From Nitrosopumilus sp. (GTDB taxonomy: Archaea; Thermoproteota; Nitrososphaeria; Nitrososphaerales; Nitrosopumilaceae), in contig OY763927.2 of the NCBI GenBank assembly GCA_963667665.2, forward strand, positions 224,001 through 288,000: a stretch of DNA of 64,000 nt, read 5' to 3'. Below are positions 4,563 through 51,790 of this stretch, piece by piece. The notes beneath the pieces were generated by a model, which had not been told where the DNA came from, did not search any database, and saw only the letters and a list, made by a program, of their open reading frames with translations. The translations under genes and the position numbers were made by a program. Positions within the stretch are counted from its first letter, which is position 1, and each line of letters starts with the position of its first letter.

Positions 4563-4563
4563 A

Positions 4564-4589: not shown

Positions 4590-4610
4590 AATAACCACTT
4601 GTAGAATATT

Positions 4611-6631: not shown

Positions 6632-7594
6632 ATGACTAAAAATGGAATCCTGTGTGTGGTTAATGAAAAACGTGTTTACTTGGATCCAAAAAAGACAGAT
6701 GTTACTGGAATTAATTTTGTCTCTCATGCACACTCTGATCATCTCCCATCAAAAAATGGCGGGACTATTTTATCATCACTTGAGACAAACCAAATAGCTA
6801 ATCTTCGTGGATTTAAGATGGAGAATTATGTTGAAACCCTTGAGGGTTTCTCTTTAATTGATAGTGGTCACATTCTTGGTGCAAAAGGATTACTCTTTGA
6901 TGATATCTTCTATACTGGAGATATCTGTACTAGAAAACGTGGATTTCTTCAAGGTGCAAAAATCCCAAAATGTAAAACCTTGATAACTGAATGCACTTTT
7001 GGCTTACCCGAATTTGTTTTTCCTCAAACTGATGAAATCCAAAAACAAGTAAATGAATTAATTTCTGAACTTTATGGAAAAGGTGTACCTGTAATTTTAA
7101 TGGGATATCAATTAGGAAAAGCACAAACTATTACTCAACTTTTTGGTCATTGGGATCCACTTTATTTTCATGATTCTGTCAAAGAGATGAATTTACTCCA
7201 TCAAAAATTAGGAATTCCACTAAAGGATGGAATTGGCCATTCTGAGGCTGAAAAAAATGGTCTATTGAATAAAAAACCTTGGGTGATGGTCGCACCATTA
7301 ATGTCTGCTAAAAACAAATTCATTCAAGATATGAAATTAAAATATGGTGCAGTAACAATAGGATTTAGTGGATGGGCACAATCATCAAGATTCTCTTTTG
7401 GGAGGAGAACTGATTATTCAATTTCAATGAGTGATCATTGTGATTTTAATGAGCTAGTAGATGTGGTAGTACAATCAGGAGCTGAACAAGTTTACACTAT
7501 ACATGGTTTTGTTGATGAATTTGCAAAATATTTAAAAAAAATGGGAATTAATGCACAACCCTTAGTAGAAAATTCTTTAGATGATTTTATTTAG
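6632..7594 (+). CDS. MBL-fold (beta-CASP-like) exonuclease
   Basis: SHAHSDH, GHILG, YTGD, TECTFG, SDHCDF, HG motifs; ATG at 6632 preferred over TTG at 6599. Confidence 0.85.
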   Translation: MTKNGILCVVNEKRVYLDPKKTDVTGINFVSHAHSDHLPSKNGGTILSSLETNQIANLRGFKMENYVETLEGFSLIDSGHILGAKGLLFDDIFYTGDICTRKRGFLQGAKIPKCKTLITECTFGLPEFVFPQTDEIQKQVNELISELYGKGVPVILMGYQLGKAQTITQLFGHWDPLYFHDSVKEMNLLHQKLGIPLKDGIGHSEAEKNGLLNKKPWVMVAPLMSAKNKFIQDMKLKYGAVTIGFSGWAQSSRFSFGRRTDYSISMSDHCDFNELVDVVVQSGAEQVYTIHGFVDEFAKYLKKMGINAQPLVENSLDDFI

Positions 7595-7823
7595 TAAATT
7601 CACTACATTCACAATTTGCAACTAGACATGTTTCTGCGTTTCTAATGTGATCATGGGAGAAATGTTTACATTTTTCATTTTTACATATTCTTCTTTGTGC
7701 TTCTTTTTGTACAACTTTTTGAGCAATTGAATTTGCCTGATCCTTTGTGTATCCTTTTTTATCGATATAGAAATGAACAATTCTATTGTATAGTAAATCT
7801 GGATTGAACTGTTTTTCTAACAT
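7587..7823 (-). CDS. Small hypothetical protein with Cys/His cluster
   Basis: 78 aa; C..C.H..H....C...C.C at the C-terminus. Confidence 0.7.
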   Translation of the reverse strand: MLEKQFNPDLLYNRIVHFYIDKKGYTKDQANSIAQKVVQKEAQRRICKNEKCKHFSHDHIRNAETCLVANCECSEFTK

Positions 7824-7996
7824 TGTTTATCTGGACATAATACATAATCATTCTATTAAAAGATCTTTGTGATTTTTACAAGATTTTGATAATATATAAC
7901 TAAATTTTGTAACTCAATTAATTTTCTTAAGTTGTTATTTATTTTTTTAAATAACACTGTTTTATATCATAATTTAATAATATAAGATGTTATTAC

Positions 7997-8110
7997 ATGG
8001 TAAAAGATGTTGATGAAGAATATCTAAAAAGTACGCAGGAGTTATTCCTTGAACTATTTATGGATACAGACAAGATTCTAAAAAAAATCAAATATCGGAC
8101 ACGAAAATAA
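7997..8110 (+). CDS. Possible small protein (37 aa)
   Basis: MVKDVDEEYLKSTQELFLELFMDTDKILKKIKYRTRK downstream of an AT-rich TATA-like region; below the ORF-track cutoff. Confidence 0.3.
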   Translation: MVKDVDEEYLKSTQELFLELFMDTDKILKKIKYRTRK

Positions 8111-37500: not shown

Positions 37501-40500
37501 CGGCATCTCAGGCTCCGGCGACACGTACTACGTTACAGTCTCCTCATCTACTGACGGAACATACAACCTTGATCTTGTCTCCTCAGGCCACAACATTGTC
37601 GATGCTGCAAACAACTCGCTGACCAACACGGCTACCACCGGTGCAGACCAGACATACACTGTCAGTACCGCAGTTATAGACAACACCAACCCAAGACTTG
37701 CATCAATTGAGCGGTACACTCCTGCAACCGAGAATACGGACAACCAGACACTAGTCTACAAGGCAACCTTTAGCGAGGATGTCACAGGGGTGGATGTATC
37801 TGACTTTACCTTGTCTTCTGACAGTGCGGGGGGAGAAAGCACATCCACCTCAACTGGACAGTTCACACAGACAAGATCCCCCCACCTTACCATACCTGAC
37901 CTTGCAACTGTATCTGATACCATCACAGTCTCCAGTTCTGGAACTGTCGCCTCCGTCTCAGTTGAAGTAGACATCACGCATAACTACATCGGCGATCTCA
38001 AGATAGACATTATTGCCCCTGATGGCACTTCAATAACACTACACGACAATTCTGGCGGCAGCACCGACAACATAGACCAGCCGTACGCCCCGTTATTTGG
38101 AAGCATCCCCATCTCAGGTGTCTGGACCCTGCAGATACACGACAGGACTGCTCCCGATCCAGGAGTCCTGAACAGCTGGACACTTACCATCAATTACGGC
38201 GATACTGCCACAACTCTCAGCTCCGTCACTGACATCTCAGGTTCAGGTGATGTGTACTATGTGACAGTCTTTGCATCAACTAATGGGACATACAACCTTG
38301 ATCTTGTCTCATCAGACCACAACATTGTCGATGCTGCAAACAACTCGCTGACCAACACGGCTACCACTGGTGCAGACCAGACATACACCGTCAGTACCGC
38401 AGTTATAGATGACACCGCCCCCACACTTGAGTCAATTCAGCGATACACTCCTGCAACCGAGAATACGGACAACCAGACACTAGTCTACAAGGCAACCTTC
38501 AGCGAGAATGTCACAGGGGTGGATGTATCTGACTTTATTTTGTCTCCTGACAGTGCCGGGGGAACAGGCGGCGGTAGCAGCCCTGTTACTGACGTCTCAG
38601 GTTCAGGTGATGTGTACTCTGTGACAGTCTTTGCATCAACTAATGGGACATACAACCTTGATCTTATCTCATCAGGTCACGGCATCGCAGATACTGCAAG
38701 CAACCCGCTGACCGACACGGCTACCACCGGGGCAGACCAGACATACACCGTCAGTACCGCAGTTATAGACACCATCTACCCAAGACTTGCATCAATTGAG
38801 CGGTACAATCCCGCATCCCAAAACACGACCAGCCAGACGCTGATCTACAAGGCAACCTTCAGCGAGAATGTCACAGGGGTGGATGCATCTGACTTTATTT
38901 TGTCTCCTGACAGCACCTGGGGAGGGAACACCTCTGCCTCCACCGGACAGTTCACGCATACAAGATCCCCCAACCTTACCATACCTGACCTTGCAACTGT
39001 ATCTGATACCATCACAGTCTCCAGTTCTGGAACTGTCGCCTCCGTCTCAGTTGAAGTAGACATTACGCATAACTACATCGGCGATCTCAAGATAGACATT
39101 ATTGCCCCTGATGGCACTTCAATAACACTACACGACAATTCTGGCGGCAGCACCGACAACATAGACCAGCCGTACGCCCCGTTATTTGGAAGCATCCCCA
39201 TCTCAGGTGTCTGGACCCTGCAGATACACGACAGGGATGCTCCCGATCCAGGAGTCCTGAACAGCTGGACACTTACCATCAATTACGGCACCACCACCAC
39301 TGTCAGCCCCGTCACTGACATCTCAGGTTCAGGTGATGTGTACTATGTGACAGTCTCTGCATTACAGGACGGCACATACAACCTTGATCTTGTCTCATCA
39401 GACCACAACATTGTCGATGCTGCAAACAACTCGCTGACCAACACGGCTACCACCGGTGCAGACCAGACATACACCGTCAGTACCGCAGTTATAGACAACA
39501 CCAACCCAAGACTTGCATCAATTGAGCGGTCCAGCCCGACATCCCAGAACACGGACAGCCAGTCTCTACTCTACAAGGCAACCTTTAGCGAGGATGTCAC
39601 GGGAGTAACTGCATCCGACTTTGTCCTGTCTCCTAGCAGTACGGGAAGAGTCAGCGGCACCACCCAAGTCACCGGCATCTCAGGCTCCGGCGACACGTAC
39701 TACGTTACAGTCTCCTCATCTACTGACGGAACATACAACCTTGATCTTGTCTCCTCAGGCCACAACATTGTCGATGCTGCAAACAACTCGCTGACCAACA
39801 CGGCTACCACCGGTGCAGACCAGACATACACTGTCAGTACCGCAGTTATAGACAACACCAACCCAAGACTTGCATCAATTGAGCGGTACACTCCTGCAAC
39901 CGAGAATACGGACAACCAGACACTAGTCTACAAGGCAACCTTTAGCGAGGATGTCACAGGGGTGGATGTATCTGACTTTACCTTGTCTTCTGACAGTGCG
40001 GGGGGAGAAAGCACATCCACCTCAACTGGACAGTTCACACAGACAAGATCCCCCCACCTTACCATACCTGACCTTGCAACTGTATCTGATACCATCACAG
40101 TCCCTGATTCTGAAACTGCCACATCCGTCTCAGTTGAAGTAGACATCACGCATAACTACATCGGCGATCTCAAGATAGACATTATTGCCCCTGATGGCAC
40201 TTCAATAACACTACACGACAATTCTGGCGGCAGCACCGACAACATAGACCAGCCGTACGCCCCGTTATTTGGAAGCATCCCCATCTCAGGTGTCTGGACC
40301 CTGCAGATACACGACAGGACTGCTCCCGATCCAGGAGTCCTGAACAGCTGGACACTTACCATCAATTACGGCGATACTGCCACAACTCTCAGCTCCGTCA
40401 CTGACATCTCAGGTTCAGGTGATGTGTACTATGTGACAGTCTCTGCATTACAGGACGGCACATACAACCTTGATCTTGTCTCATCAGACCACAACATTGT

Positions 40501-43500
40501 CGATGCTGCAAACAACTCGCTGACCAACACGGCTACCACTGGTGCAGACCAGACATACACCGTCAGTACCGCAGTTATAGACAACACCAACCCAAGACTT
40601 GCATCAATTGAGCGGTACAATCCTGCAACCGAGAATACGGACAACCAGACACTAGTCTACAAGGCAACCTTCAGCGAGAATGTCACAGGGGTGGATGTAT
40701 CTGACTTTATTTTGTCTCCTGACAGTGCCGGGGGAACAGGCGGCGGTAGCAGCCCTGTTACTGACGTCTCAGGTTCAGGTGATGTGTACTCTGTGACAGT
40801 CTTTGCATCAACTAATGGGACATACAACCTTGATCTTATCTCATCAGGTCACGGCATCGCAGATACTGCAAGCAACCCGCTGACCGACACGGCTACCACC
40901 GGGGCAGACCAGACATACACCGTCAGTACCGCAGTTATAGACAACACCAACCCAAGACTTGCATCAATTGAGCGGTACAATCCCGCATCCCAAAACACGA
41001 CCAGCCAGACGCTGATCTACAAGGCAACCTTCAGCGAGAATGTCACAGGGGTGGATGCATCTGACTTTATTTTGTCTCCTGACAGCACCTGGGGAGGGAA
41101 CACCTCTGCCTCCACCGGACAGTTCACGCATACAAGATCCCCCAACCTTACCATACCTGACCTTGCAACTGTATCTGATACCATCACAGTCTCCAGTTCT
41201 GGAACTGTCGCCTCCGTCTCAGTTGAAGTAGACATTACGCATAACTACATCGGCGATCTCAAGATAGACATTATTGCCCCTGATGGCACTTCAATAACAC
41301 TACACGACAATTCTGGCGGCAGCACCGACAACATAGACCAGCCGTACGCCCCGTTATTTGGAAGCATCCCCATCTCAGGTGTCTGGACCCTGCAGATACA
41401 CGACAGGGATGCTCCCGATCCAGGAGTCCTGAACAGCTGGACACTTACCATCAATTACGGCACCACCACCACTGTCAGCCCCGTCACTGACATCTCAGGT
41501 TCAGGTGATGTGTACTATGTGACAGTCTCTGCATTACAGGACGGCACATACAACCTTGATCTTGTCTCATCAGACCACAACATTGTCGATGCTGCAAACA
41601 ACTCGCTGACCAACACGGCTACCACCGGTGCAGACCAGACATACACCGTCAGTACCGCAGTTATAGACAACACCAACCCAAGACTTGCATCAATTGAGCG
41701 GTCCAGCCCGACATCCCAGAACACGGACAGCCAGTCTCTACTCTACAAGGCAACCTTTAGCGAGGATGTCACGGGAGTAACTGCATCCGACTTTGTCCTG
41801 TCTCCTAGCAGTACGGGAAGAGTCAGCGGCACCACCCAAGTCACCGGCATCTCAGGCTCCGGCGACACGTACTACGTTACAGTCTCCTCATCTACTGACG
41901 GAACATACAACCTTGATCTTGTCTCCTCAGGCCACAACATTGTCGATGCTGCAAACAACTCGCTGACCAACACGGCTACCACCGGTGCAGACCAGACATA
42001 CACTGTCAGTACCGCAGTTATAGACAACACCAACCCAAGACTTGCATCAATTGAGCGGTACACTCCTGCAACCGAGAATACGGACAACCAGACACTAGTC
42101 TACAAGGCAACCTTTAGCGAGGATGTCACAGGGGTGGATGTATCTGACTTTACCTTGTCTTCTGACAGTGCGGGGGGAGAAAGCACATCCACCTCAACTG
42201 GACAGTTCACACAGACAAGATCCCCCCACCTTACCATACCTGACCTTGCAACTGTATCTGATACCATCACAGTCCCTGATTCTGAAACTGCCACATCCGT
42301 CTCAGTTGAAGTAGACATCACGCATAACTACATCGGCGATCTCAAGATAGACATTATTGCCCCTGATGGCACTTCAATAACACTACACGACAATTCTGGC
42401 GGCAGCACCGACAACATAGACCAGCCGTACGCCCCGTTATTTGGAAGCATCCCCATCTCAGGTGTCTGGACCCTGCAGATACACGACAGGACTGCTCCCG
42501 ATCCAGGAGTCCTGAACAGCTGGACACTTACCATCAATTACGGCGATACTGCCACAACTCTCAGCTCCGTCACTGACATCTCAGGTTCAGGTGATGTGTA
42601 CTATGTGACAGTCTCTGCATTACAGGACGGCACATACAACCTTGATCTTGTCTCATCAGACCACAACATTGTCGATGCTGCAAACAACTCGCTGACCAAC
42701 ACGGCTACCACTGGTGCAGACCAGACATACACCGTCAGTATCGCAGTTATAGACAACACCAACCCAAGACTTGCATCAATTGAGCGGTACAATCCTGCAA
42801 CCGAGAATACGGACAGCCAGTCTCTACTCTACAAGGCAACCTTTAGCGAGGATGTCACGGGAGTAACTGCATCCGACTTTGTCCTGTCTCCTAGCAGTAC
42901 GGGAAGAGTCAGCGGCACCACCCAAGTCACCGGCATCTCAGGCTCCGGCGACACGTACTACGTTACAGTCTCCTCATCTACTGACGGAACATACAACCTT
43001 GATCTTGTCTCCTCAGGCCACAACATTGTCGATGCTGCAAGCAACCCGCTGACCGACACGGCTACCACCGGGGCAGACCAGACATACACCGTCAGTACCG
43101 CAGTTATAGACAACACCAACCCAAGACTTGCATCAATTGAGCGGTACACTCCTGCAACCGAGAATACGGACAACCAGACACTAGTCTACAAGGCAACCTT
43201 TAGCGAGGATGTCACAGGGGTGGATGTATCTGACTTTACCTTGTCTTCTGACAGTGCGGGGGGAGAAAGCACATCCACCTCAACTGGACAGTTCACACAG
43301 ACAAGATCCCCCCACCTTACCATACCTGACCTTGCAACTGTATCTGATACCATCACAGTCCCTGATTCTGAAACTGCCACATCCGTCTCAGTTGAAGTAG
43401 ACATTACGCATAACTACATCGGCGATCTCAAGATAGACATTATTGCCCCTGATGGCACTTCAATAACACTACACGACAATTCTGGCGGCAGCACCGACAA

Positions 43501-44188
43501 CATAGACCAGCCGTACGCCCCGTTATTTGGAAGCATCCCCATCTCAGGTGTCTGGACCCTGCAGATACACGACAGGACTGCTCCCGATCCAGGAGTCCTG
43601 AACAGCTGGACACTTACCATCAATTACGGCACCACCACCACTGTCAGCCCCGTCACTGACATCTCAGGTTCAGGTGATGTGTACTATGTGACAGTCTCTG
43701 CCACGCAGGACGGCACATACAACCTTGATCTTGTCTCATCAGACCACAACATTGCAGATGCTGCAAACAACTCGCTGACCAACACGGCTACCACTGGTGC
43801 AGACCAGACATACACCGTCAGTACCGCAGTTATAGACAACACCAACCCAAGACTTGCATCAATTGAGAGGTCCAGCCCGACATCCCAAAATACGAACAGC
43901 CAGTTCCTGATCTACAAGGCAACCTTTAGCGAGAACGTTACGGGAGTGACTGAATCTGACTTTACTTTGTCACCTGGCAGCACGGGAAGGGAAAATAACG
44001 GCATCAGTCCGATCATCGGCATCACAGGTTCCGGCGACACATACTACGTGATAGTTTCCTCAACCGTTGACGGGACATACAACCTTGATCTTGTCTCATC
44101 AGGCCACAACATTGCAGATGCTGCAGACAACCCGCTGACCAACACGGTTCCCATCACCGGAATTGATCAGACGTACACAAAGATCTAA
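25540..44188 (+). CDS. Giant secreted surface protein (~6200 aa): PKD/K319-like + DUF285 x2, about 30 Ig-like repeats, 13 proprotein-convertase P-domains; frame broken at ~29630-30050
   Basis: ORFs 25540..29781 and 30569..44188 (open from about 30050) share the same 119-aa repeat across a garbled segment; WDVSSVT.M..MF repeats; [16 protein letters not shown]...GVWTLQI.D....D.G.LNSWTL P-domain motif. Confidence 0.8.
28370..44185 (+). repeat. Coding tandem array: ~357-bp units, ~727-bp units with P-domain, 2172-bp higher-order repeat
   Basis: Near-identical shadow ORFs recur at 33412, 35584, 37756, 39928 and 42100 (period 2172) and at 28569, 28926 and 29283 (period 357). Confidence 0.95.
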
Positions 44189-44244
44189 AACCTTGTATAA
44201 TCGCCTAATATTTTTAACCCCACACGTCCTGTAAGGGGTTATCT

Positions 44245-44266
44245 ATGTCAGAAGTTGAAAATGTGC
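44245..44266. mobile_element. Orphan ISH3-like terminal inverted repeat
   Basis: ATGTCAGAAGTTGAAAATGTGC is the exact reverse complement of 22578-22599. Confidence 0.75.
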
Positions 44267-44449
44267 TCCGTAAATGGATTTTTTGCTCATAATCTCATAA
44301 TCTAATTGACATTATTTTTTGATATACGATGCTAAATGTTGGCTCTGTGTCATTGTCGGTTGAGATCTTCTCCTTGTCTCATTTCGGTTGATTTTTGTAC
44401 AAATTCAGTGCTCTGTTATCCCATGTTTTCAAATGTGTGATTTTCAGTG

Positions 44450-44478
44450 TAAAACATGGAAAAATTGTACGTGTTTTA
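44450..44478 (+). other. Putative recombination site type 2, copy a (TAAAACATGGA-AAAATTG-TACGTGTTTTA)
   Basis: 11-7-11 imperfect palindrome; related copies at 46394, 47028 and 47779. Confidence 0.5.
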
Positions 44479-44520
44479 TGGACTAATGAAATATGAGTGT
44501 TTTTCACTGTGAAGGATAAA

Positions 44521-46332
44521 TTATTCTTTAGAATTTCTATTTATAATATGCTCATCTAATAAATCTACACCCTCATCTACAAAAGTCATAGAATTTCCCT
44601 TGGTGATTTTCTTAATTTTCTTTTTTAATTTATTTGAAATTTGTAATTTTGGTTTTTTCTTATTTGCAGTATAATGATCTTCAATAGACTGCATAAATTT
44701 AGGCAATATGAATAATATCTCATCTGTAGATTCAAACTTTTTTGCGAGAAATGTACCATTAATTAAATAATAACCCAATAAACTAAGCTCATCTGCTGCT
44801 TCTGTTCTATTATTTTTATTAATAGATAACCTTTGATATAAATAATGAAAGAAAAAAACAGGTGAAGAAAAAATATCTGTGACAGTTTCTAAATCATGAA
44901 AATAAACTATCCAAGGAAGAGGATAATTAGTATCAAATATGTTCATTTCATCTAATATTCTAAGATCAGTACTAAAAAATCCTAAACTTTCCAAAGTGAC
45001 ATCAATAAATAAAATTTCATTTTGAAAAGGTTCATACTCTAAAGTTAATAATTTCTTTTCTTTATTGTTATCCCAAAAAATTATTTCCTTTCCAGAAGTT
45101 ATAAAATCATAAGCTTTGGTATTTTGTTCATATGCATTTTCAATAAGATTTTTCAATCTGTCTTTTAACTTACGTCCCCCTTCTAATTTTGTATAGGGTG
45201 GAAAAGAACCCGATTTTCCTTCAACCAAAATAATTTTATTTGCACAAACAATCAAAACATCAATTTCTCCTTCTTTTCCCTCCTCATTCCAATAGTGTAA
45301 ATTTTGATAAACATTTTTTTTAGGAAAAATACGACAAAAATAACTATAAATCTGCTCTTCAACAAATTTTGATTTAGTATTAGTAAACTCATCCCAGATG
45401 GATGATTGATTGTTTCTATCTTCACTTAGTATGTATTCAACTAAGAGGTCTATTCTTTGGATTAAGACATCTGGTCGCGTAATAAAATATCTATTTTCAT
45501 CAATTTTTATAATTGGTTTATAAAAAATGATATTAACTGATGATGAATTAACGAATTCATCAAATTGATCACCAAATGTACAACTAAAACAATCTAAATA
45601 TTTTTGAAAGTGTTGAGGATCAATATCATCAAATATTTCACAAAAATTATTTTTATTGATTATAAGAAAGTGAGGTGCTATTGCATTTAGATATGTATTG
45701 GTATAATTATTAAAACAAGTTTCAAAGGTAAGGTCATTTTCCTTCAAAAATTTTTGATAACTAGGATCATTTTCATTTAATTTTGTAGCTTCTTTATAGT
45801 TCTTAGATAAAGTTTCAAAAGTTTTGTTTGGTTGAAAATTTAAAGATTCATTTAACATTTCTCCATATTCATGTGCTTCTTTTATTGTAAAGCCATATCT
45901 AGTAAGAAAAATATCATTTAATGAATAAAGAACATTTTCAACATAATTCTCTTTTTGATGTTGAAAAATATTTGGATTGTTATCTACAAGCATTTTTTGG
46001 TTTTTAGAAATGAATTCAAGTGAATTTCTGGGTTGACCATTTTTAAACATTAATTCTGCATGAAATGTATCAAAATAATCAATCACTAATTTATAAATTT
46101 CATTAACAATCTCGGGGGTAGGTTTAGGCCCATTCAAATTATTATGTTTTAAAAATAATCCAAGAAGAAATAATGCATATGGGTTTTCACTCATTCTGTT
46201 AGTAGCATCATGAAATGAATAACTTTGTAATAATAATTCGTTTAAAGCGAGTAAAGATAATAATTCAAGATTGCCATACGTTTCTAATTTTTTTTTAATA
46301 ATTTCTAATTTTTTATAAGATTCTAAAACCAT
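44521..46332 (-). CDS. NERD/PD-(D/E)xK nuclease-domain protein, putative defence
   Basis: EE...GEIDVLIV..KIILVEGKS...AYEQ restriction-like motif; very AT-rich. Confidence 0.7.
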   Translation of the reverse strand: MVLESYKKLEIIKKKLETYGNLELLSLLALNELLLQSYSFHDATNRMSENPYALFLLGLFLKHNNLNGPKPTPEIVNEIYKLVIDYFDTFHAELMFKNGQPRNSLEFISKNQKMLVDNNPNIFQHQKENYVENVLYSLNDIFLTRYGFTIKEAHEYGEMLNESLNFQPNKTFETLSKNYKEATKLNENDPSYQKFLKENDLTFETCFNNYTNTYLNAIAPHFLIINKNNFCEIFDDIDPQHFQKYLDCFSCTFGDQFDEFVNSSSVNIIFYKPIIKIDENRYFITRPDVLIQRIDLLVEYILSEDRNNQSSIWDEFTNTKSKFVEEQIYSYFCRIFPKKNVYQNLHYWNEEGKEGEIDVLIVCANKIILVEGKSGSFPPYTKLEGGRKLKDRLKNLIENAYEQNTKAYDFITSGKEIIFWDNNKEKKLLTLEYEPFQNEILFIDVTLESLGFFSTDLRILDEMNIFDTNYPLPWIVYFHDLETVTDIFSSPVFFFHYLYQRLSINKNNRTEAADELSLLGYYLINGTFLAKKFESTDEILFILPKFMQSIEDHYTANKKKPKLQISNKLKKKIKKITKGNSMTFVDEGVDLLDEHIINRNSKE

Positions 46333-46393
46333 TTATTTTTTTACCATATGTTACTTTTAATATTTTACATTCAATACAATCTTTACTGAATCA

Positions 46394-46422
46394 TAAAACA
46401 CAGACATTCATTGCATGTTTTT
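46394..46422 (-). other. Putative recombination site type 2, copy b (TAAAACACAGA-CATTCAT-TGCATGTTTTT)
   Basis: Inverted relative to copy a. Confidence 0.5.
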
Positions 46423-46510
46423 TGTTTAAATCATGAATTAGTTGAAATTTTTGAAATACTTGATAACATAATACCCTTCATTTTTCTAATCTCAAATCAC
46501 AATTATCCTC

Positions 46511-46789
46511 ATGGGATTTATCAAATGTCTAGAATGCGGAGAAGTTTTAGAAAGTAAATCTGTCCATGATTTTGTGAGATGTTCTTGTGAGAATCAAACT
46601 TTCCTTGATGGAGGGGATGAATATGGTCGATATGGAGGCATGGATATGGATAAAATTCAGATAATTGACTCTACTACTATCAATTCATTCATTCAGAGAC
46701 ATTATCCTACATATGATTCAGAAGCAGATGATAGGCCCATACGTGAAGTGTTAGATGAAATCCATAGAAAATTGAAAAAATATACCTGA
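46511..46789 (+). CDS. Small Zn-ribbon protein of a phage-associated family
   Basis: IKCLECGEVLES.SVHDFV.CSC...DGG motif. Confidence 0.7.
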   Translation: MGFIKCLECGEVLESKSVHDFVRCSCENQTFLDGGDEYGRYGGMDMDKIQIIDSTTINSFIQRHYPTYDSEADDRPIREVLDEIHRKLKKYT

Positions 46790-46829
46790 AATGACATGAT
46801 GATAAAAGAAAACTATGATGGAGTAAAAT

Positions 46830-47012
46830 ATGAAGATCTTTCTGGAAAACAATTCCTACATTGTTAATGTAAAAAAATCTCCGGAGGGGGGTTTTATCGG
46901 ACAGTGTGTAGAGTTGTCAGTAGCAATAAGTCAAGGTGAAACAATTCAAGAATTAGAAGCAAACATCAAAGAGGCGATAGTGTTGGTTCTGCAAGAACTT
47001 GTGGACAAATGA
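46830..47012 (+). CDS. HicB-like antitoxin (no HicA partner visible)
   Basis: EGGFIGQCVEL..AISQGETIQELEANIKEAI. Confidence 0.8.
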   Translation: MKIFLENNSYIVNVKKSPEGGFIGQCVELSVAISQGETIQELEANIKEAIVLVLQELVDK

Positions 47013-47027
47013 TTCATGATTTAGACG

Positions 47028-47056
47028 AGAAACATGGGGAGATTGTATGTGTTTTG
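47028..47056 (+). other. Putative recombination site type 2, copy c (AGAAACATGGG-GAGATTG-TATGTGTTTTG)
   Basis: Same orientation as copy a; its flank GATTCAGCAAATATTG resembles the flank of copy b. Confidence 0.45.
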
Positions 47057-47111
47057 ATTCAGCAAATATTGAAGATTAGTTTATAATCGAAGATTTGTTT
47101 AATATAAAATC

Positions 47112-47771
47112 ATGGTAAATTATGCAATACCTGATCATATTACTTTGCAAAAACTAACCACTGTTTTCAAAAAATTATTTGATGCAGATTGTTTGATAGC
47201 TTTTAAAGATAATGAAGAATTTGATAAAATTTTTGAACGTACTAATTCCATAATGAAAATATCCGAAGCAAAGTTTGTGATACTTCAGGATGATGAATTA
47301 TTAGATAACTACAAAAAATTTTGGGCAGGTCATTTTATCAATGAATTTGATATTTATAATGATTTTATGCAACAAGCAGCTTCATACTTACTTAGTATGT
47401 TTGAACACATTAAGAGATTCTTAATGATGTTTTTAGATCTGAAAAAAATGAAACTACGTGAAAAATCCACGTTAGGTACTATTGTAATTGAAATCAGTAA
47501 AAAATGTGGCTATTCTTGGGATTCTTTAAATGATCTATTTGATGTGAATACTAGAAATATTATTGGTCATGATAATTGGTATTACAAAGAAAAAAATTTT
47601 GCTTATAAAGATGAGAATGGTGTAGAAAAAGAAATTACATTGAGTGAACTTGTTGAAAAAATAAAATATGTTACATCATTGAGTAATGCAATTGCTATGG
47701 TATGGCAACCATATATAGTGAAACTTGAAATCGACAGATACAAAGAAAATAAAAGAAATGTCTCAACATGA
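47112..47771 (+). CDS. Helical protein with HEPN-like motif
   Basis: STLG...LFDVNTRNIIGH (RxxxxH). Confidence 0.6.
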   Translation: MVNYAIPDHITLQKLTTVFKKLFDADCLIAFKDNEEFDKIFERTNSIMKISEAKFVILQDDELLDNYKKFWAGHFINEFDIYNDFMQQAASYLLSMFEHIKRFLMMFLDLKKMKLREKSTLGTIVIEISKKCGYSWDSLNDLFDVNTRNIIGHDNWYYKEKNFAYKDENGVEKEITLSELVEKIKYVTSLSNAIAMVWQPYIVKLEIDRYKENKRNVST

Positions 47772-47778
47772 TTGATCA

Positions 47779-47796
47779 TAAAACACGGACAATTGC
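47779..47796 (-). other. Putative recombination site type 2, copy d (half site TAAAACACGGA-CAATTGC)
   Basis: A few nt after the HEPN gene stop; second arm replaced by the 68-bp repeat. Confidence 0.45.
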
Positions 47797-47797
47797 A

Positions 47798-48019
47798 CTA
47801 TTTCAACAAGAATTCCATACAAGATCATGCAAGAGTAGAACACTATGAATCTCTTATGAAAAATCAAGATAATGAGGTAGTTGTCTAGACAACTTTTTTT
47901 CTATTTTGAAAATGGTTACAAATGATAACCATTTTTAGATATTTCATATCTATTTCAACAAAAATCCCATACAAGATCATGCAAGAGTAGAACACTTTAT
48001 GAATCTCTTATGAAAAATC
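47798..48019 (+). repeat. ~68-70-bp direct repeat (47798-47865, 47950-48019) enclosing IS-end hairpin copy 1
   Basis: CTATTTCAACAA...CCATACAAGATCATGCAAGAGTAGAACACT..ATGAATCTCTTATGAAAAATC twice. Confidence 0.9.
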
Positions 48020-48025
48020 TCAATT

Positions 48026-48988
48026 ATGAATCTGGTTTGGGTAGTAATTCCATTAGTTTTGATTGGGATTATTGGAATGCAAGAAGTATCTGCTTGTTCA
48101 TGTGCTATGTCAACAATAGAAGAAGCATTTGAAAATACTGAGGTTGTATTTTCAGGACTTGCAACAAACATTATTCATGTTGATGGTATTTACCATACAA
48201 ATTTTCTTGTTACAGACAAATGGAAGAATATTGAACAAGACATAATTCAAATCAATATATATTCAAATGATGGCACATGTGGTGTTAATTTTAAGATTAA
48301 TAAAAAATATATTATTTTTGCAGGTGAATATTCTGGAGATGATCCAAAAAAATCAGGATTGTATACTAGTGCATGTACTTATACACAATCAGTTGAGCAT
48401 GCAGGAATTAACACATTAAATTTTCTAGAAAATAATAGTATATTTTTTCAATCAGTCATGCCTCCATTAAAACAAATATCTACTGGAATCCATGTTAAAG
48501 ATGTAACTTGCAAAGAAGGATTAGATTTAATTTTCAAATCATCAGATAACTCTCCAGCTTGCGTAAGACCACAAACTGCTGAAAAATTAATACAACGAGG
48601 TTGGACAAACAAAGATGTTACTGATAGTGGATCAGAACCTTTGATTCGTGGAGCTCCAAGTCAACAAGTCAGAATTATTGATTTAGATGGCAACTTTCTA
48701 AATAATGCGATAGTAAATTCTAGTTCTTTTATTACTGTAGATGTAGCAAATCCAAAATCTACAGATCAACAATATCTTATAATTTTTGAAATTCAAAATG
48801 AAGAAAAAATACTAGTTGAACAAATATCTGAAATCGTTACTGTAAAATCAGGAGAATCATTTACACCAAAATTTGAGTGGATTCCTAAGGAAAAAGGAAG
48901 GCATTTGATAACTAATTTCTTCTTAGATGCATCTGATAATTCAACTGCAATATGGCCTCCTTATTCCACTACAATGCTTGTGAAATAA
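48026..48988 (+). CDS. Secreted protein: TIMP/NTR-like N-domain + thaumarchaeal PACV module + Ig-like C-domain
   Basis: Signal peptide then A|CSC...VVFSG...CGVNF...KYIIFA...SACT; PPLKQ..G...C..G...PACV.P.TAEKL..RGW. Confidence 0.7.
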   Translation: MNLVWVVIPLVLIGIIGMQEVSACSCAMSTIEEAFENTEVVFSGLATNIIHVDGIYHTNFLVTDKWKNIEQDIIQINIYSNDGTCGVNFKINKKYIIFAGEYSGDDPKKSGLYTSACTYTQSVEHAGINTLNFLENNSIFFQSVMPPLKQISTGIHVKDVTCKEGLDLIFKSSDNSPACVRPQTAEKLIQRGWTNKDVTDSGSEPLIRGAPSQQVRIIDLDGNFLNNAIVNSSSFITVDVANPKSTDQQYLIIFEIQNEEKILVEQISEIVTVKSGESFTPKFEWIPKEKGRHLITNFFLDASDNSTAIWPPYSTTMLVK

Positions 48989-49030
48989 TTTCAAATTTTC
49001 TATCTGCGTCCATTTTCATCCCTAAAAAGG

Positions 49031-49263
49031 TGGGTGAATCCCCGTGGAGTTGAATCTACATTGTATTTTATTTTGAAAATGGTTACAAATTATAACCATT
49101 TTTAGATATTTCATCTCTATTTCAACAAGAATCTAAATTCATCTTGCCATCTTCATCAGTATTCACTGGAATTTTCATTTCATTTCCAAAAAACTCTGTA
49201 ATGGAGTACTGTTTAGGAATAATTTTCTTACTGGAATTTTGAATCAATGTCTTCCATTTGTCC
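49031..49263 (-). mobile_element. SWIM-IS6 3' remnant (diverged allele) with downstream end
   Basis: Encodes DKWKTLIQNSSKKIIPKQYSITEFFGNEMKIPVNTDEDGKMNLDSC* plus the ~90-bp conserved end. Confidence 0.9.
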
Positions 49264-49596
49264 TGGGTGAATCCCCGTGGAGTTGAATCTACATTGTATT
49301 TTATTTTGAAAATGGTTACTAATTATAACCATTTTTAGATATTTCATATCTATTTCAACAAGACTCTAAATTCATTTTACCATCTTCGTCAGTATTGACT
49401 GGAATTTTGATTTCATTACCAAAAAACTCAGTTATTGAGTACTGTTTAGGCGTGATTTTCCTTTGAGCGTTTTGAATCAATGTCTTCCATTTATCCTCCC
49501 CTAGGATTCGAATCCCTGCAACTTCGGCAGGAGTTTTACCTCCAAGACTAGTATGTGGCCTGAAATAGTTGTGAAACAACTGATATCCTGAAATCA
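49264..49596 (-). mobile_element. SWIM-IS6 3' remnant (last ~80 codons) with downstream end
   Basis: Near-identical to 50471-50802. Confidence 0.9.
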
Positions 49597-49644
49597 TTGA
49601 AGAATTTTTTTTCTTTTTATATTATTAGAATTATTGATTATTCC

Positions 49645-49974
49645 ATGTCTATCTACAAATTATCCTACAGTGAAGTGATAACTGAAATAACCAAAGTGGT
49701 ACCTGGATGGAGTATTACAATCACTCCTAATGACTTTATTGAGAATCCAGAAAAGTATTCACAAATTAAAATTGTTGTAGTTAATGATGAGTTAACCATT
49801 ACTAGAGATGCAGTACTGCCAATCTTACAACCTCAAAAAATTCCATTTCATCTGAACATTATTAAATTGAATGTAGCTAATCTAATTTGTAAATATATAG
49901 AAAAGAATGATTTACAATTATTCCAAGAAATATGTGATCACTTTTCTAAAGTGTATGAGTCGAGATTGAATTAA
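49645..49974 (+). CDS. Hypothetical protein
   Basis: ORF from ATG 49645; no recognisable motif. Confidence 0.5.
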   Translation: MSIYKLSYSEVITEITKVVPGWSITITPNDFIENPEKYSQIKIVVVNDELTITRDAVLPILQPQKIPFHLNIIKLNVANLICKYIEKNDLQLFQEICDHFSKVYESRLN

Positions 49975-49982
49975 CCGAATAA

Positions 49983-50438
49983 ACTGGAAAGTCTTTTCCA
50001 TGTACACTTGGATTTGCTGCAACATATGGTGGTGATGGTGGATTCATTACTGCTGGACATTGCTTTGCATCATTATCTGTAGGTGCAGACGCTAAGCATC
50101 CAGAATCTGGTTCAAAGATAGGTGATTTAGTAGAAGAGCTTTATGGTCCTAACACATACATCTATTGTGACTGTGCATTTGTAGAATCTGATGCTGGTGA
50201 TATTCCAAACGGAGAAACATATGGTATGGCTGACGCATCTAGTGTTGGTAGTACAGTTTGGAATAAAGCAGTAAAATCTTCACAATCCCAAGATGGTATT
50301 GAAACTGGTAATGTAGATGCAACTTATGTGCATCTTTCAACTGGTGACGGTAGATATTGGATCGGAGTTGTAAGAACTGACATGCCTGGTCAGACTGGTG
50401 AATATGTATTCCGTGAATTTGTTGGAGGCCAAGACTAG
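49983..50438 (+). pseudogene. Internal fragment of an S1 (chymotrypsin-like) serine protease
   Basis: CTLGF...GFITAGHC...DCAFV; no start codon, and diverges just before the expected GDSGG. Confidence 0.75.
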
Positions 50439-50560
50439 AGCATGATAATAAAAATATCTGCAATTTTGTTTAGGTGAATCTCCATGAGTTGAACCTACAT
50501 TATATTTTATTTTGAAAATGGTTACTAATGATAACCATTTTTAGATATTTCATATCTATT

Positions 50561-51790
50561 TCAACAAGACTCTAAATTCATTTTACCATCTTCGTCAGTA
50601 TTGACTGGAATTTTGATTTCATTACCAAAAAACTCAGTTATTGAGTACTGTTTAGGCGTGATTTTCCTTTGAGCGTTTTGAATCAATGTCTTCCATTTAT
50701 CCTCCCCTAGGATTCGAATCCCTGCAACTTCGGCAGGAGTTTTACCTCCAAGACTAGTATGTGGTCTAAAATAGTTATGATACAACTGATATCCTGAAAT
50801 CACGACTGAATCCTTCTTTTTTACGCCTCGTGTTGTCTTTTCTTTGTCTCGAAATTCACCGTTTAATCTCTCCATCATGTTGTTGTTGTGATTTCCATCC
50901 AATCGTATAGTGTTGATGTGGATTGGTAATTCATTTCCATACACTCGAAATTCTTTTCTAAATGCTCTGTCATATACTGGAGAACCATCAGTGATGAATA
51001 CTGAAGGTGTACTCTGTGTGATTTCTTTTGCATTTGATAGTAACTTTCTTGCATCATGATGAAATTTTGTATCTGCAAGTTCTTTTGATATCCAGAATCT
51101 TGTCTTGTCATCCATTGACATGAACAAATATCTTTGACGCCCTTTTATTTTTAGAAAAATCTCATCTGCTCTCCAAATTGTTCCAACTTGCGGAACAATT
51201 GTTGCATTGAGGTGTGCTTGTATCATTTGTGTATAGTACGTAACCCATCGTGATACTGAATGGTGTGTAATATCAAGACCTATTAGATTCAAAGATTTTG
51301 CAACTCCCCTAAAGGATAATCCTGAAAAATAAAGATGCATTGCATATGTGATCACTTGAGGTTTGTACTTTCTGTTTTTGAATCCGACATTGTCACAATA
51401 TTTTCTATGACATTCCATACAATCATATTTTTGCTCCTTTCTTCTCTTATTGTATCTCCATCCATACTTTCGAAATTTATCAGAACCACAATACGGACAA
51501 CTGGTCTTGTCTATTTCTGGAATTATCCATGTTGGTTGTTTCATTTCTACGTGTTTGATCAGTCCTCTAAACTCTAATGCGTAGATGTGCTTGCATTTTT
51601 TCTGTTTGTATGAATAATCGTTACAGGTACATCCCCATTCTGATTTTGAAAGATGTACGATATAACCATCATTTGAATTAGTCTGAGACTTTACAAGAAA
51701 TTTTGTTTTGTTGATTCTTTTGATTTGATCTAGTATCCTTTCTGCAATCTTCTGCCCTTTCTGTTTTCTAGCCTCATTATATACTACCAT
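50561..51790 (-). CDS. IS6-like DDE transposase with SWIM and Zn-ribbon domains (intact)
   Basis: CTCND...CKHIYA, CPYC...CMEC, WRADE, FITDG, NNMMERLNG, HNYFRPH. Confidence 0.9.
   Translation of the reverse strand: MVVYNEARKQKGQKIAERILDQIKRINKTKFLVKSQTNSNDGYIVHLSKSEWGCTCNDYSYKQKKCKHIYALEFRGLIKHVEMKQPTWIIPEIDKTSCPYCGSDKFRKYGWRYNKRRKEQKYDCMECHRKYCDNVGFKNRKYKPQVITYAMHLYFSGLSFRGVAKSLNLIGLDITHHSVSRWVTYYTQMIQAHLNATIVPQVGTIWRADEIFLKIKGRQRYLFMSMDDKTRFWISKELADTKFHHDARKLLSNAKEITQSTPSVFITDGSPVYDRAFRKEFRVYGNELPIHINTIRLDGNHNNNMMERLNGEFRDKEKTTRGVKKKDSVVISGYQLYHNYFRPHTSLGGKTPAEVAGIRILGEDKWKTLIQNAQRKITPKQYSITEFFGNEIKIPVNTDEDGKMNLESC

Follow-up and report, generated by a model that had tools for sequence, protein, structure and literature searches.

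The window, a stretch of 64 kb from a genome (G000) of the marine ammonia-oxidising archaeon Nitrosopumilus, carries two cassettes that diverge from a central backbone and are bordered by copies of one short bipartite site. The first cassette has as its cargo a protein of 603 aa that contains a NERD nuclease-related domain (44521..46332, minus strand; Pfam PF08378, E = 3.9e-5), as the initial annotation had proposed. Its 3'-type (DN) border, site a (44450..44478, plus strand; covariance model score 46.5 bits), reads AGTGT-TAAAACATGGA-AAAATTG-TACGTGTTTTA, is inverted relative to the NERD gene and lies 43 nt past its stop codon. An extra half site, CCCATGTTTTC (44420..44430, minus strand), lies 21 nt outside site a and probably derives from a four-arm junction, of whose mirrored half it would be a remnant. 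The 5'-type (UP) border, site b (46394..46422, minus strand; 50 bits), is extended by an outer arm TTCATGATTT and a central AAACAA to about 46445. Site b and the ATG are separated by 62 nt. A palindromic box, GATTCAGTAAAGATTG...TTGAAT, lies in the leader between them (46333..46393, minus strand), together with a TATA-like stretch rich in A+T.

The backbone includes a 40-nt element (46460..46499, plus strand) that is 100% identical to G000:C1:901838-901877, where the copy sits upstream of a paralogous HicB-like gene; this element is backbone and not cassette. It lies upstream of the gene for a 92-aa zinc-ribbon protein, DUF7695 (46511..46789, plus strand, divergent from site b; PF24749, E = 5e-14). 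The next gene encodes a 60-aa HicB-like protein (46830..47012, plus strand) whose match to PF15919 exists but is weak (E = 0.0089, under the Pfam cut-off). Its stop codon is immediately next to the outer arm of site c, and homology to the HicB-like paralogue at 902 kb stops at 47016, just outside the site. Site c, the 5'-type (UP) border of the second cassette (47013..47056, plus strand; 45.7 bits), comprises the outer arm TTCATGATTT, a central AGACGA and the 29-bp site S (47028-47056). After a leader with GATTCAGCAAATATTGAA and TATA-like boxes (47057..47111, plus strand; 56 nt between site c and the ATG), the cargo gene encodes a 219-aa protein with an R-x4-H motif, RNIIGH (47112..47771, plus strand). 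The 3' border, site d (47779..47796, minus strand; 16.4 bits), is a half site that retains the right arm (47779-47789) and the spacer (47790-47796), its left arm being replaced by a locally repeated sequence with further copies at about 47950, 49120, 49350 and 50560. Re-reading of the window bore out the earlier coordinates, strands and four oriented spacers (AAAATTG, ATGAATG, GAGATTG and GCAATTG), and the flank GATTCAG.AAA.ATTG ascribed to b and c is present after both sites.

The NERD assignment is confirmed, the zinc ribbon belongs to DUF7695 and the HicB-like label is weak. The 219-aa protein had been called HEPN-like, for which the R-x4-H motif is the sole basis: it matched no family in family searches, its Atlas neighbours are unnamed archaeal clusters and its single-sequence fold (pLDDT 46) is unusable. 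The description of the cargo as defence genes fits a part of the cargo only, as most cargo ORFs match nothing. DUF7695 occurs in 7 of 151 genomes of the genus, three of the nine that bear sites and four without them, and it adjoins a 5' site divergently in G000, G264 and G325. An operator of a HicB or RHH regulator is an unlikely role for the sites, considering this distribution, the lack of a DNA-binding domain match (Pfam) in the 60-aa protein and the one further copy of its gene seen in G000, which has no site beside it.

The observation of the sites themselves is confirmed. The pattern AAACATG-N12-GTGTTTT has three exact matches in the 1,891,871-base genome, and all three (sites a, b and c) lie in the window, inside 2.6 kb. 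With at most one mismatch, the core pattern occurs at 8 places genome-wide, compared to 0 for a reversed control pattern; with at most two mismatches, the window contains 5 matches against a shuffle mean of 1.42, and 1 of 100 shuffles reached 5. A profile built from five sites recovered the same five in the genome (E <= 3e-8), followed by d (E = 0.16) and nothing beyond. The covariance model found a, b and c at 46-50 bits, d at 16 bits and no others in the 64-kb window. Pattern, profile and covariance-model searches together give five full sites and one half site in G000, including a second inverted pair, e/f, that is 115 kb off and brackets another HEPN-type gene. The sites belong to one family that is real and conserved, with members placed in inverted orientation on either side of single genes. 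They are not the 11-7-11 palindromes first described, since the arms measure about 9 bp, the palindrome is mainly formed by the outer AAAACA/TGTTTT and the arm spacing varies.

We surveyed the anatomy of 33 sites (19 5'-type, 11 3'-type and 3 mirror halves). The repeating unit is a box, AAAACAYG, of alternating orientation; these boxes form the 29-bp site S, and back-to-back copies yield a four-arm palindrome of about 66 bp. Of the 29 sites with two arms, 21 have a distance of 11 nt between AAAACATGG and GTGTTTT, 7 have 10 nt and one has 15 nt. The 5' element of about 90 bp has three alternating AAAACAYG boxes around a central AGACGA. Next come a palindromic box with the pattern GGTTCA-N6-8-TGAA and a leader that is A+T-rich and promoter-like. 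Downstream of 15 of the 19 5' sites, an ATG-initiated ORF of at least 60 aa starts after 50-97 nt, in 10 of these 15 after 50-62 nt, and two more were found by ORF map. Leaders of 5' sites are 62% identical (median, 153 pairs), compared to 57-59% for unrelated flanks. The 3' element is inverted, has a central AGTGT and is often a full four-arm palindrome with terminal T-runs that can form a hairpin; 8 of 11 3' sites lie 6-67 nt beyond the stop of a convergent ORF. The central sequence thus splits into two discrete classes, AGACGA (5') and AGTGT (3'), while the spacers vary among the sites of one genome. Elsewhere, adjacent cassettes share complete four-arm junctions, which separate co-oriented cassettes in three contigs (L129, L067 and L153), in arrays of just one or two cassettes. 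As single strands, three of the four junctions tested gave good folds (z = -4.4, -2.3 and -3.5), and junctions carry T-runs at their ends on both strands. Single sites fold no better than shuffles (z from -1.2 to +1.2) and none of the seven sites with an altered arm base has a compensatory change, indicating that the sequence rather than a hairpin is conserved. This pattern of conservation suggests a protein-binding character of the arms.

By inspection, true sites are present in 9 of the 151 Nitrosopumilus genomes and in 9 metagenome contigs, the latter among 46 pattern-matching metagenome stretches. A scan of one genome per species returned 29 matching stretches, of which only the 5 from Nitrosopumilus-type MAGs were real; neither this nor the metagenome scan found the family outside the genus. 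The cassettes are mostly single-gene and appear native to Nitrosopumilus. Cargo homologues without sites do occur for NERD, where four of the five homologues in the genus are siteless and one, 39% identical and located in G263, has a 3' site, but not for the ApeA-type gene, whose sole homologue is flanked by decayed sites on both sides. Decayed sites were found in G264, G325 and G301.

Comparison between genomes supports the earlier suggestion that modules are shuffled: homologous backbones hold different cargo, and the same cargo with its sites is found in different backbones. Two independent cases represent the former. In G000, G264 and G325 the outer flank is 70-79% identical and the cargo 60-61%, equal to the background of 59%; site b with its outer flank and DUF7695 is conserved in G264 and G325 next to differing cargo. 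In G263 and contig L129, the outer flank is 88% and the cargo 61% identical. Conversely, the cargo of the f/e pair of G000 is 74% identical in G301, where decayed 5' and 3' sites are in place and the outer flank is 61% identical. In each of these three comparisons, homology gives way to unrelated DNA within the sites. Several of the transitions observed lie at or in the spacer, where breakpoints had been expected. Identity between G263 and L129 falls directly after the left arm. In a marine metagenome contig (record 13) cassette 2 is about 95% identical, and the match to site c stops at 47036, where the left arm ends. In G000, site d is broken off where the spacer meets the left arm; its copy in a marine contig runs past 47796 with a complete left arm and outer flank, and G253_D retains left arm and spacer only. 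Marine metagenome contigs also contain a near-copy of site a with 2 differences in 39 nt, spacer included, in other flanks (record 11) and a copy of site c (47016-47057) with 3 differences, spacer included, and unlike flanks on both sides (record 12). A copy of the NERD cargo with 92% DNA identity has other flanks in a cold-seep contig (record 9). Overall, the switch points are scattered over the conserved core between about -12 and +60. None of the contigs compared with the region contained a joint from excision or inversion at a site, although rare forms would not be visible in contigs.

No recombinase gene was found linked to any cassette examined, so that any enzyme would act in trans. This part of the initial annotation agrees with our data. 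Scores for an archaeal XerA equivalog stayed below the cut-off among the G000 proteins (best 83.5 bits, cut-off 220). G000 further lacks an integron integrase (best 38.8 bits, cut-off 265), and searches of this genome for a serine recombinase and Cas1 found none. It does contain 16 tyrosine-recombinase-like frames, all away from the sites; core UvrABC genes intervene between the two nearest frames and the cassettes. The cassette of G252 adjoins a gene for a 447-aa recombinase that has no homologue in G000.

Taken together, the first interpretation is partly supported. In our preferred reading, to which we assign a probability of roughly 40%, the sites are the borders of exchangeable cassettes that would be used by a recombinase acting in trans. 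This putative site-specific enzyme, a dimer or tetramer encoded elsewhere and most plausibly of the tyrosine type, would bind the inverted boxes and exchange strands in or beside the S spacer. The AGACGA and AGTGT classes would make the two ends of one cassette mutually incompatible and each end compatible with the matching end of other cassettes, leading to cassette exchange rather than loss. Each cassette may be transcribed from a promoter in its leader and insulated by the 3' palindrome and the T-runs. Several observations count against this reading. Arm spacings of 10-11 nt (once 15) and differing spacers are unusual for the core site of a tyrosine recombinase, the spread of switch points is also expected from general recombination, and a purely transcriptional role is consistent with both the constant spacing to the start codon and the hairpin with T-runs. 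The decayed sites, the siteless NERD homologues and the lack of a recombinase that is linked to the cassettes or, in G000, of integron, serine, Cas1 or XerA type also weigh against it.

A recombinase-free mechanism resembling the PeSLs of phages is the main rival and accounts for the same data almost as well, though we consider it somewhat less likely. Here, composite terminator-promoter cassettes would be shuffled by general recombination: the 3' palindrome with T-runs would terminate transcription and the 5' boxes with the leader would initiate it, perhaps through a transcription factor binding AAAACAYG or GGTTCA-N-TGAA, while sequences of about 40-90 bp flanking unrelated genes would serve as portable homology by which the gene between them is swapped, deleted or inserted. 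The stereotyped distance between 5' site and start, the second conserved palindromic box and TATA-like boxes after 5' sites, the folding junctions with terminal T-runs, the missing linked recombinase, the scatter of switch points over the whole conserved core and the ORFan-rich cargo in variable regions, as with PeSLs, all agree with it. On the other hand, the isolated 3' sites a and e share the arms and spacer pattern of 5' sites though nothing is transcribed from them, and arm changes are uncompensated and single sites unfolded. A terminator loop would not need the central hexamer that is conserved in two classes. The ends of a cassette are inverted, so that simple recombination between them would invert the gene and not excise it, and the family is confined to 9 of 151 genomes despite a universal host transcription machinery.

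A non-autonomous transposon, akin to a mobile insertion cassette or a large MITE, is an improbable identity for the cassettes; the ends of about 50 bp would then be terminal inverted repeats, and an insertion sequence with the same ends would supply a transposase in trans. Inverted ends do bracket passenger genes without an internal transposase, the ApeA cassette and its sites are in different contexts in G000 and G301, and these islands commonly hold insertion sequences or pieces of them (an IS6-family transposase at 50561-51790 of the window, rve fragments close to each of the three G000 islands and, between the G314 sites, insertion sequences of three types). However, the three cassettes read (G000 b-a, G000 f-e and G252) have no target-site duplication, and outer flanks are conserved between genomes while the inside differs, the opposite of what insertion predicts. 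Neighbouring cassettes meet at a single, shared palindromic junction and do not each have an end of their own, no S-like inverted repeat flanks the intact IS6-family gene, and the profile and model searches of G000, which gave the five sites and d only, revealed no same-ended element with an internal transposase. Still less credible is a mere operator regulon, in which one transcription factor (e.g. DUF7695 or a toxin-antitoxin regulator) would co-regulate defence genes amid ordinary island turnover of cargo: palindromic boxes do lie upstream of genes and DUF7695 beside 5' sites in three genomes, but most 3'-type sites (8 of 11) stand at gene 3' ends, DUF7695 is missing from six of the nine site-bearing genomes and present in four siteless ones, the HicB-like protein has no DNA-binding domain match and the switch to unrelated DNA falls in the sites in all three comparisons.

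As exchangeable cassettes, these elements can be compared with several known systems. The IS231-derived mobile insertion cassettes of Bacillus cereus likewise carry passenger genes between inverted ends and lack a transposase; the Nitrosopumilus cassettes differ in that neither a target-site duplication nor a same-ended parent insertion sequence was found for them and in that their flanks are conserved while the cargo changes. PeSLs (promoter-early stem-loops) of T4-type phages are promoter and stem-loop motifs upstream of ORFans that are shuffled by recombination between the motifs (PMC2839356). The likeness extends to composite motifs just upstream of ORFans in hyperplastic regions, where they bound insertions, deletions and replacements between relatives; PeSLs are phage elements with sigma-70 promoters and variable stems, whereas the host is archaeal here, the arms are conserved in sequence without compensation, the centre falls into two fixed classes and the cassette ends are inverted copies.

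Archaeal integrons are described in PMC9668308. Integron cassettes and CALINs (clusters of attC sites that lack an integrase), including those with species-specific attC families, resemble our elements in several respects. Co-oriented cassettes are separated by imperfectly palindromic junctions, about 66 bp long and able to fold as single strands, and the outer boxes of these junctions mark the cassette borders. The cargo consists mostly of single ORFans and of genes of toxin or defence type and, as in CALINs, no integrase is nearby. The Nitrosopumilus genome has no IntI at all, the cassettes, in arrays of one or two, are each equipped with a 5' element and a putative promoter, and the window cassettes diverge from a central backbone instead of following an attI site. 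The outer boxes AAAACAC and GTGTTTT presumably do not fit the R''/R' consensus of attC either.

The pdif modules of Acinetobacter plasmids are Xer-dependent and bounded by short bipartite sites in alternating inverted orientation, often with toxin-antitoxin or accessory genes. Here too, such sites bound small modules that recur in different contexts and hold no recombinase. The analogy is one of layout only, and the proposed Xer/pdif kinship is not supported: the arms are about 9 bp long with 10-11 nt to the second arm, compared to 11-6-11 with a fixed central region in pdif, and no XerA equivalog scored above cut-off. The elements are chromosomal and archaeal, and their sites fall into one class at gene 5' ends, which carries a promoter-like leader, and another at gene 3' ends. 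In conclusion, these borders look like those of an exchangeable gene cassette of a kind not described before.

The source genome of the window (G000, with main contig C1 and second contig C2) carries a small family of 29-bp sites of inverted AAAACAYG boxes, here called S. Four of them had been proposed in the window by the initial annotation and are confirmed at their positions: site a at 44450-44478 (+), site b at 46394-46422 (-), site c at 47028-47056 (+) and site d at 47779-47796 (-), the last with right arm and spacer only. The inverted, alternating orientation also holds, and it recurs in a second pair, site e (G000:C1:383543, +) and its inverted partner f (G000:C1:384948, -), both one-mismatch matches to the core pattern. 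Inverted site pairs are further present in the related genomes G252, G253, G263 and G314 and in the metagenome contigs L129, L145 and L153. The three exact matches to AAACATG-N12-GTGTTTT in the window are the only three in the whole of G000 (1,891,871 bases, 34% G+C) and lie within 2.6 kb. The motif stands above background, with eight places in G000 at no more than one mismatch and none for the reversed pattern. A profile built from five sites recovered these five in G000 at E <= 3e-8; d followed at E = 0.16 and was the last match. A covariance model of S without structure (R1) found a, b, c and d only in the 64-kb window, and an Rfam search of window 44000-48300 gave no match.

The anatomy of S was derived from an alignment of 33 sites from G000 and other genomes or contigs. 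Its basic unit is the box AAAACAYG in alternating orientation: AAAACATGG is followed by 10-11 nt of the loose pattern AAnAnTTGT and then by GTGTTTT. The spacing from AAAACATGG to GTGTTTT is 11 nt in 21 of the 29 two-armed sites, 10 nt in seven and 15 nt in one. A third, mirrored box lies outside S, and the hexamer between falls into two classes. The 5' sites (19/33) read TTCATGATTT-AGACGA-S and are followed by a conserved leader in which A+T-rich, TATA-like boxes accompany a second palindrome, GGTTCA-N6-8-TGAA. In 15 of these 19 sites an ORF of 60 aa or more with an ATG start begins 50-97 nt past S, and two further ones have an ORF by the ORF map; the distance from S to the ATG is 62 nt at b, 56 nt at c and 60 nt at f. 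The 3' sites (11/33) read (A)TTCCATGATTT-(T)AGTGT-S, have no leader and in 8 of 11 cases lie 6-67 nt past the stop codon of a convergent ORF. Complete four-arm palindromes of about 66 bp, in which the 3' site makes up one half, occur at four places (L129 4994-5054, L067 3764-3836, L153 2676-2745 and L066 5512-5579). The other half in L129, L067 and L153 consists of 5'-site arms and leader facing the opposite way, and no ORF start was found within 160 nt of this 5'-type half.

When folded as single-stranded DNA and compared with shuffled sequences, three of the four tested four-arm junctions gave z = -4.4, -2.3 and -3.5, and the single sites a, b, c and f folded no better than shuffles (z -1.2 to +1.2). 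Changes in the arms are compensated in none of seven sites: AAAATATGG occurs in four with the partner G kept, and GTATTTT in three with the C kept. Conservation is at the level of box sequence, which suits a putative protein-binding site, and not of a hairpin. The core common to unrelated 5' sites spans about -23 to +65, counted from the left arm, and the median identity over 153 pairs is 75% in the core, 62% in the leader and 57-59% in flanks and cargo.

Cassette 1, between b and a, contains the NERD protein previously assigned to it (603 aa, Pfam E = 3.9e-5), and the Zn-ribbon protein encoded in the backbone between b and c is DUF7695 (E = 5e-14). The 60-aa backbone protein named HicB is HicB-like by a weak match (E = 0.0089, below the cut-off). 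The 219-aa cargo of cassette 2, between c and d, contains the R-x4-H motif, the sole basis of its HEPN-like label, and has no family match; nothing named was found for it in PADLOC, NCBIfam and the protein atlas, and its single-sequence fold is unusable (pLDDT 46). The 452-aa ORF bracketed by e and f matches the defence models PDC-S58 (E = 6e-18) and Cas13-ApeA, of HEPN type. Cargo in other genomes and contigs includes a second NERD protein, a broken DAC/DACNG pair, DUF4153 and DUF6338 proteins and a PD-Lambda-5_A fragment (E = 3e-54). Since 24 of 26 cargo or neighbouring ORFs had no match in PADLOC and most of them no Pfam family, the cargo first described as defence genes is partly of defence type and mostly orphan. 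Only one of five NERD homologues found elsewhere in the genus has an adjoining site and the other four have none, which counts against a close coupling of cargo and sites. A paralogous island at G000:C1:901838-905362 is free of S sites and may be useful as a reference for the backbone. It contains a 40-nt upstream element 100% identical to that of the window, a HicB-like gene with 81% DNA identity, a 49-nt copy of the flank of site a (96%) and fragments of rve and KAP-NTPase genes.

Exchange of modules was assessed by the identity of segments, against a background of 57-59%, and both different modules in the same context and the same module in different contexts are seen. The outer flank of site a (window 44339-44476) and the stretch that runs from b via its leader into DUF7695 (46378-46717) are 72-79% identical in G264, where ORFs of 139 aa and 359 aa lie between the two flanks in place of NERD; the same two flanks surround about 0.8 kb of other DNA in G325. 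In the comparison of b with G264 or G325, identity is 70-79% in the outer flank and 60-61% in the cargo. G263 and L129 provide a case independent of these two: they are 83% identical over 200 nt outside the 5' site and 86% over 241 nt beyond the next junction, and the shared flanks enclose a 480-aa ORF in G263 and a 284-aa ORF in L129 (outer flank 88%, cargo 61%). Conversely, a homologue of the ApeA-type gene (75% DNA identity) occurs in genome G301 on a contig other than that of the 23S rRNA gene, and it has a 5' site and a four-arm 3' junction, both decayed, at the expected places. Its outer flank matches contig L121 and not the flank of f (f versus G301: outer flank 61%, cargo 74%).

Metagenome contigs extend these observations. 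The NERD gene recurs on a contig of a cold-seep run at about 92% identity (44556-46376) between flanks unlike those of the window. The cassette of the 219-aa protein recurs at about 95% identity on a contig of a marine run, where the match to c ends at 47036, the end of the left arm, and where the copy of d is complete and continues into the left arm and an outer flank of the TTCATAGTTTAGACGA type. The same run contains a lone copy of c (47016-47057, 3 differences) with both flanks unlike and a copy of a (44440-44478, 2 differences) within a four-arm junction. In G000, d stops at the border of spacer and left arm, where a locally repeated sequence with further copies near 47950, 49120, 49350 and 50560 takes over, and one site of G253 (G253_D) consists of left arm and spacer only. 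Of the breakpoints, which were expected in the spacer, several do fall at or in the spacer of S, but the switch points overall extend from about -12 to +60. Contigs of four public runs were compared, and no joint at any site was found in the two runs that hold the strain; as contigs are blind to rare forms, the absence of such joints says nothing about activity. Overall, these comparisons show that cargo is swapped at the elements.

We favour the explanation that a dedicated, putative recombinase provided in trans swaps cargo at the sites, and we give it a probability of roughly 40%. Such an enzyme would act on the boxes of S, and the two hexamer classes would keep the ends of a cassette heterospecific. 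Several observations point to this explanation: the boxes are conserved as sequence and arranged as for a dimer, two fixed hexamer classes mark the cassette ends in a heterospecific layout that gives exchange and not loss, and several breakpoints lie at or in the spacer. The main rival, which we consider somewhat less probable, is modelled on the promoter-early stem-loop (PeSL) cassettes of T4-type phages. The 3' palindrome with its T-runs and the 5' leader would then form a terminator/promoter pair, and general recombination would shuffle genes between the repeats with no enzyme of their own. In agreement with it are the fixed start-codon distance, the variable spacing of the arms, the spread of switch points and the lack of a detected enzyme. 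Both explanations could hold at once, since a promoter may be part of a recombination site. A transposon-type cassette is improbable: the inverted ends of about 50 bp do resemble those of mobile insertion cassettes and MITEs, but no direct repeat that could be a target-site duplication abuts, by eye, the ends of the three cassettes read (b-a, f-e and that of G252), and no transposase-bearing parent element with these ends was found in G000, where the profile and R1 match the five sites and d only. A pure operator regulon likewise fits poorly and is very improbable, given that DUF7695 is present in only three of the nine site-bearing genomes; with seven of 151 genomes of the genus encoding it, neither DUF7695 nor HicB was retained as a site-binding partner.

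A co-occurring tyrosine recombinase had been proposed. None of the cassettes examined has a recombinase gene inside it or next to it. Serine recombinases and Cas1 are absent from G000, and its best score with the integron integrase IntI (TIGR02249) is 38.8 bits at a cut-off of 265. There are 16 tyrosine-recombinase-like frames in G000; with the archaeal XerA equivalog (NF040815) the best score is 83.5 bits at a cut-off of 220, alongside eleven weaker tyrosine-recombinase frames. The two best XerA-like frames lie at 219-224 kb, 44-49 kb from the cassettes, with core UvrABC genes between. A 447-aa recombinase is encoded beside tRNA-Glu, 1.9 kb from the cassette of G252, and a similar one about 6.5 kb from the sites of G253; both were discarded as the enzyme since G000 has no homologue.

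Within the genus, R1 matches at E <= 0.01 occur in 24 of 151 genomes, and after sequence inspection true sites remain in nine (G000, G252, G253, G263, G264, G314, G325, G328 and G333). Most other weak matches represent a few recurring sequences common to several genomes, which we read as conserved coding stretches: among 18 weak matches inspected, at least 11 are four recurring sequences, each in 2-4 genomes, and only those of G328 and G325 look real. The exact core pattern has a match in 27 of 201 genomes of the family, with a maximum of one per genome outside G000, and most of these are one recurring, probably coding sequence (AAACATGC.GC.GA.TC.GGTGTTTT). A degenerate 5'-site pattern run against one genome per prokaryotic species returned 29 stretches, five of which are MAG records of G252, G253, G263, G264 and G314 ('Nitrosopumilus sp.' or 'Nitrososphaerota archaeon'). 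One 'Nitrososphaeraceae' stretch was unconfirmed by R1, and the remainder come from unrelated organisms in about the number expected by chance. The same pattern found 46 stretches in metagenome contigs, nine of them with at least 26 bits in R1. Two pattern scans of viral contigs yielded three and zero stretches and no true family member; for two of the three, R1 had given a low score or none.

The window cassettes sit among three giant surface-type genes and insertion-sequence debris. A 4539-aa ORF of long near-identical repeats (30569-44188, +) ends 260 nt before site a, and giant DUF285/PKD-repeat proteins of 1413 aa (25540-29781, +) and 2928 aa (54725-63511, -) are encoded on either side. 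The 141-nt intergenic repeat that follows the giant gene at 44200-44340 also occurs at G000:C1:185452 (99%) and 668316 (97%), and a 20-22-nt piece of it at four more places. At 47798-50570, a repeat of about 60-70 nt in 4-5 copies, with a hairpin (AAAATGGTTAC...TAACCATTTT) and CTATTTCAACAAGAATTCC, is interleaved with C-terminal fragments of an IS6-family transposase (49122-49247 and 49355-49597). At site d, one copy of the repeat stands in place of the left arm, and a ACAAGAATTCCATAC stretch of similar kind lies directly beside site e. An intact 409-aa IS6-family copy (DDE_Tnp_IS240 and SWIM) lies at 50561-51790, with no S-like inverted repeat around the gene. The e/f cassette is located about 2.1 kb downstream of the 3' end of the 23S rRNA gene (L213 = G000:C1:381000-388000, 1-440), with a ParE-like toxin and a partner between this gene and site e. 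Homology ends 20-170 nt past the rRNA gene in most genomes of the genus, so the locus is a variable hotspot. The cassette of G333 lies inside a 2.17-kb insert beside tRNA-Leu(tag) (L071 = G333:C1:1564000-1576000, 5902-8070), which is missing from 9 of 11 related loci compared and has imperfect inverted ends of about 30 bp and a possible 6-bp duplication (CACAAA). In G264 and G195, other inserts that include a HicB-like gene start with the same left end. The G333 insert appears to be a small insertion element of a second, separate kind at a hotspot beside a tRNA gene. The comparison with empty sites does not date the S cassette, as the insert's own ends, and not S sites, meet the empty site. 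Contig C2 (6,911 bases) is a 99.1% copy of C1:930937-937890; it was rejected as a plasmid and stems either from redundancy in the assembly or from a recent duplication.

Nitrosopumilus and related organisms rank among the most abundant archaea of the ocean. If the sites recombine, they would give small genomes a new route to sample defence and orphan genes, and the 29-bp S would be a concrete substrate for finding the enzyme. In a group that, to our knowledge, is without a genetic system, a recombinase with two heterospecific site classes would lend itself naturally to use as a tool for cassette exchange. If the elements are instead regulatory cassettes shuffled by general recombination, they would be an archaeal, cellular counterpart of phage PeSLs, the first known to us, and would offer a compact promoter and terminator pair for these organisms. 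Under either explanation, the motif is a practical marker of accessory genes in Nitrosopumilus metagenomes.

In regard to known systems, the available parts of the literature on Nitrosopumilus and Thaumarchaeota hold no description of such sites in the lineage, and those of a catalogue of thaumarchaeal mobile elements neither mention MITEs nor describe site-bounded cassettes (PMC6563490). Cas1 frames are present in 59 of 151 genomes of the genus, and no link between them and the sites was found. Genomes with several casposase-sized frames (about 410-450 aa) include G330, G302 and G231 without an R1 hit and G263 with both; in L129, a 410-aa casposase-sized Cas1 (3647-4879, Pfam E = 3e-58) ends 115 nt from the four-arm junction. 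Casposon ends were rejected as an identity of S: G000 lacks Cas1, the several-casposase genomes G330, G302 and G231 lack sites, and the published family 1 ends differ, those of the N. koreensis casposon being TTCTA with the duplication ATTGATAAAGAGT (PMC8464041, as far as available).

The outer boxes of integron attC sites are RYYYAAC ... GTTRRRY (R''/R'). Those of S are AAAACAC ... GTGTTTT(A/G), in which GTTTTAT has pyrimidines where attC needs purines, and G000 has no IntI, which distinguishes the cassettes from integrons and CALINs. Junctions in L129, L067 and L153 are tandem and co-oriented; the two window cassettes are divergent. The accessible portion of a paper on archaeal integrons makes no mention of Thaumarchaeota, nor does that of its preprint of Nitrososphaer- (PMC9668308). 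Xer/pdif sites are 28 bp long with two 11-bp arms and a 6-bp centre of fixed length. The window sites had been likened to this geometry, which does not apply to S, whose arms are about 9 bp with the second arm at a variable spacing of 10, 11 or 15 nt; only the centre of the junctions (TTCATGATTT-AGACGA-AAAACATGGAA) is roughly 11-6-11. Shared with pdif are the inverted sites bounding modules, the alternating orientation along the array and the occurrence of one module in several contexts and of several modules in one context. The available text of a paper on archaeal dif mentions neither Nitrosopumilus nor Thaumarchaeota (PMC2958812), and what is accessible of this literature gives no dif site for the lineage. 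With pdif as with integrons and CALINs, the layout is alike, but defining features of both systems, such as the fixed 11-6-11 geometry and IntI, are absent. For PeSLs of T4-type phages, gene shuffling by general recombination between repeated motifs is shown in the part of the report available (PMC2839356), and the layout of 5' leader and 3' palindrome fits such a composite of predicted promoter and stem-loop terminator. In conclusion, we tentatively propose that marine ammonia-oxidizing archaea may have a cassette-exchange system of their own, in which self-expressed single-gene cassettes set between two heterospecific classes of a three- or four-box AAAACAYG site would be swapped between genomes by a putative recombinase in trans, supplying defence-type and orphan genes to streamlined genomes in parallel to, and unrelated to, integrons and pdif modules.
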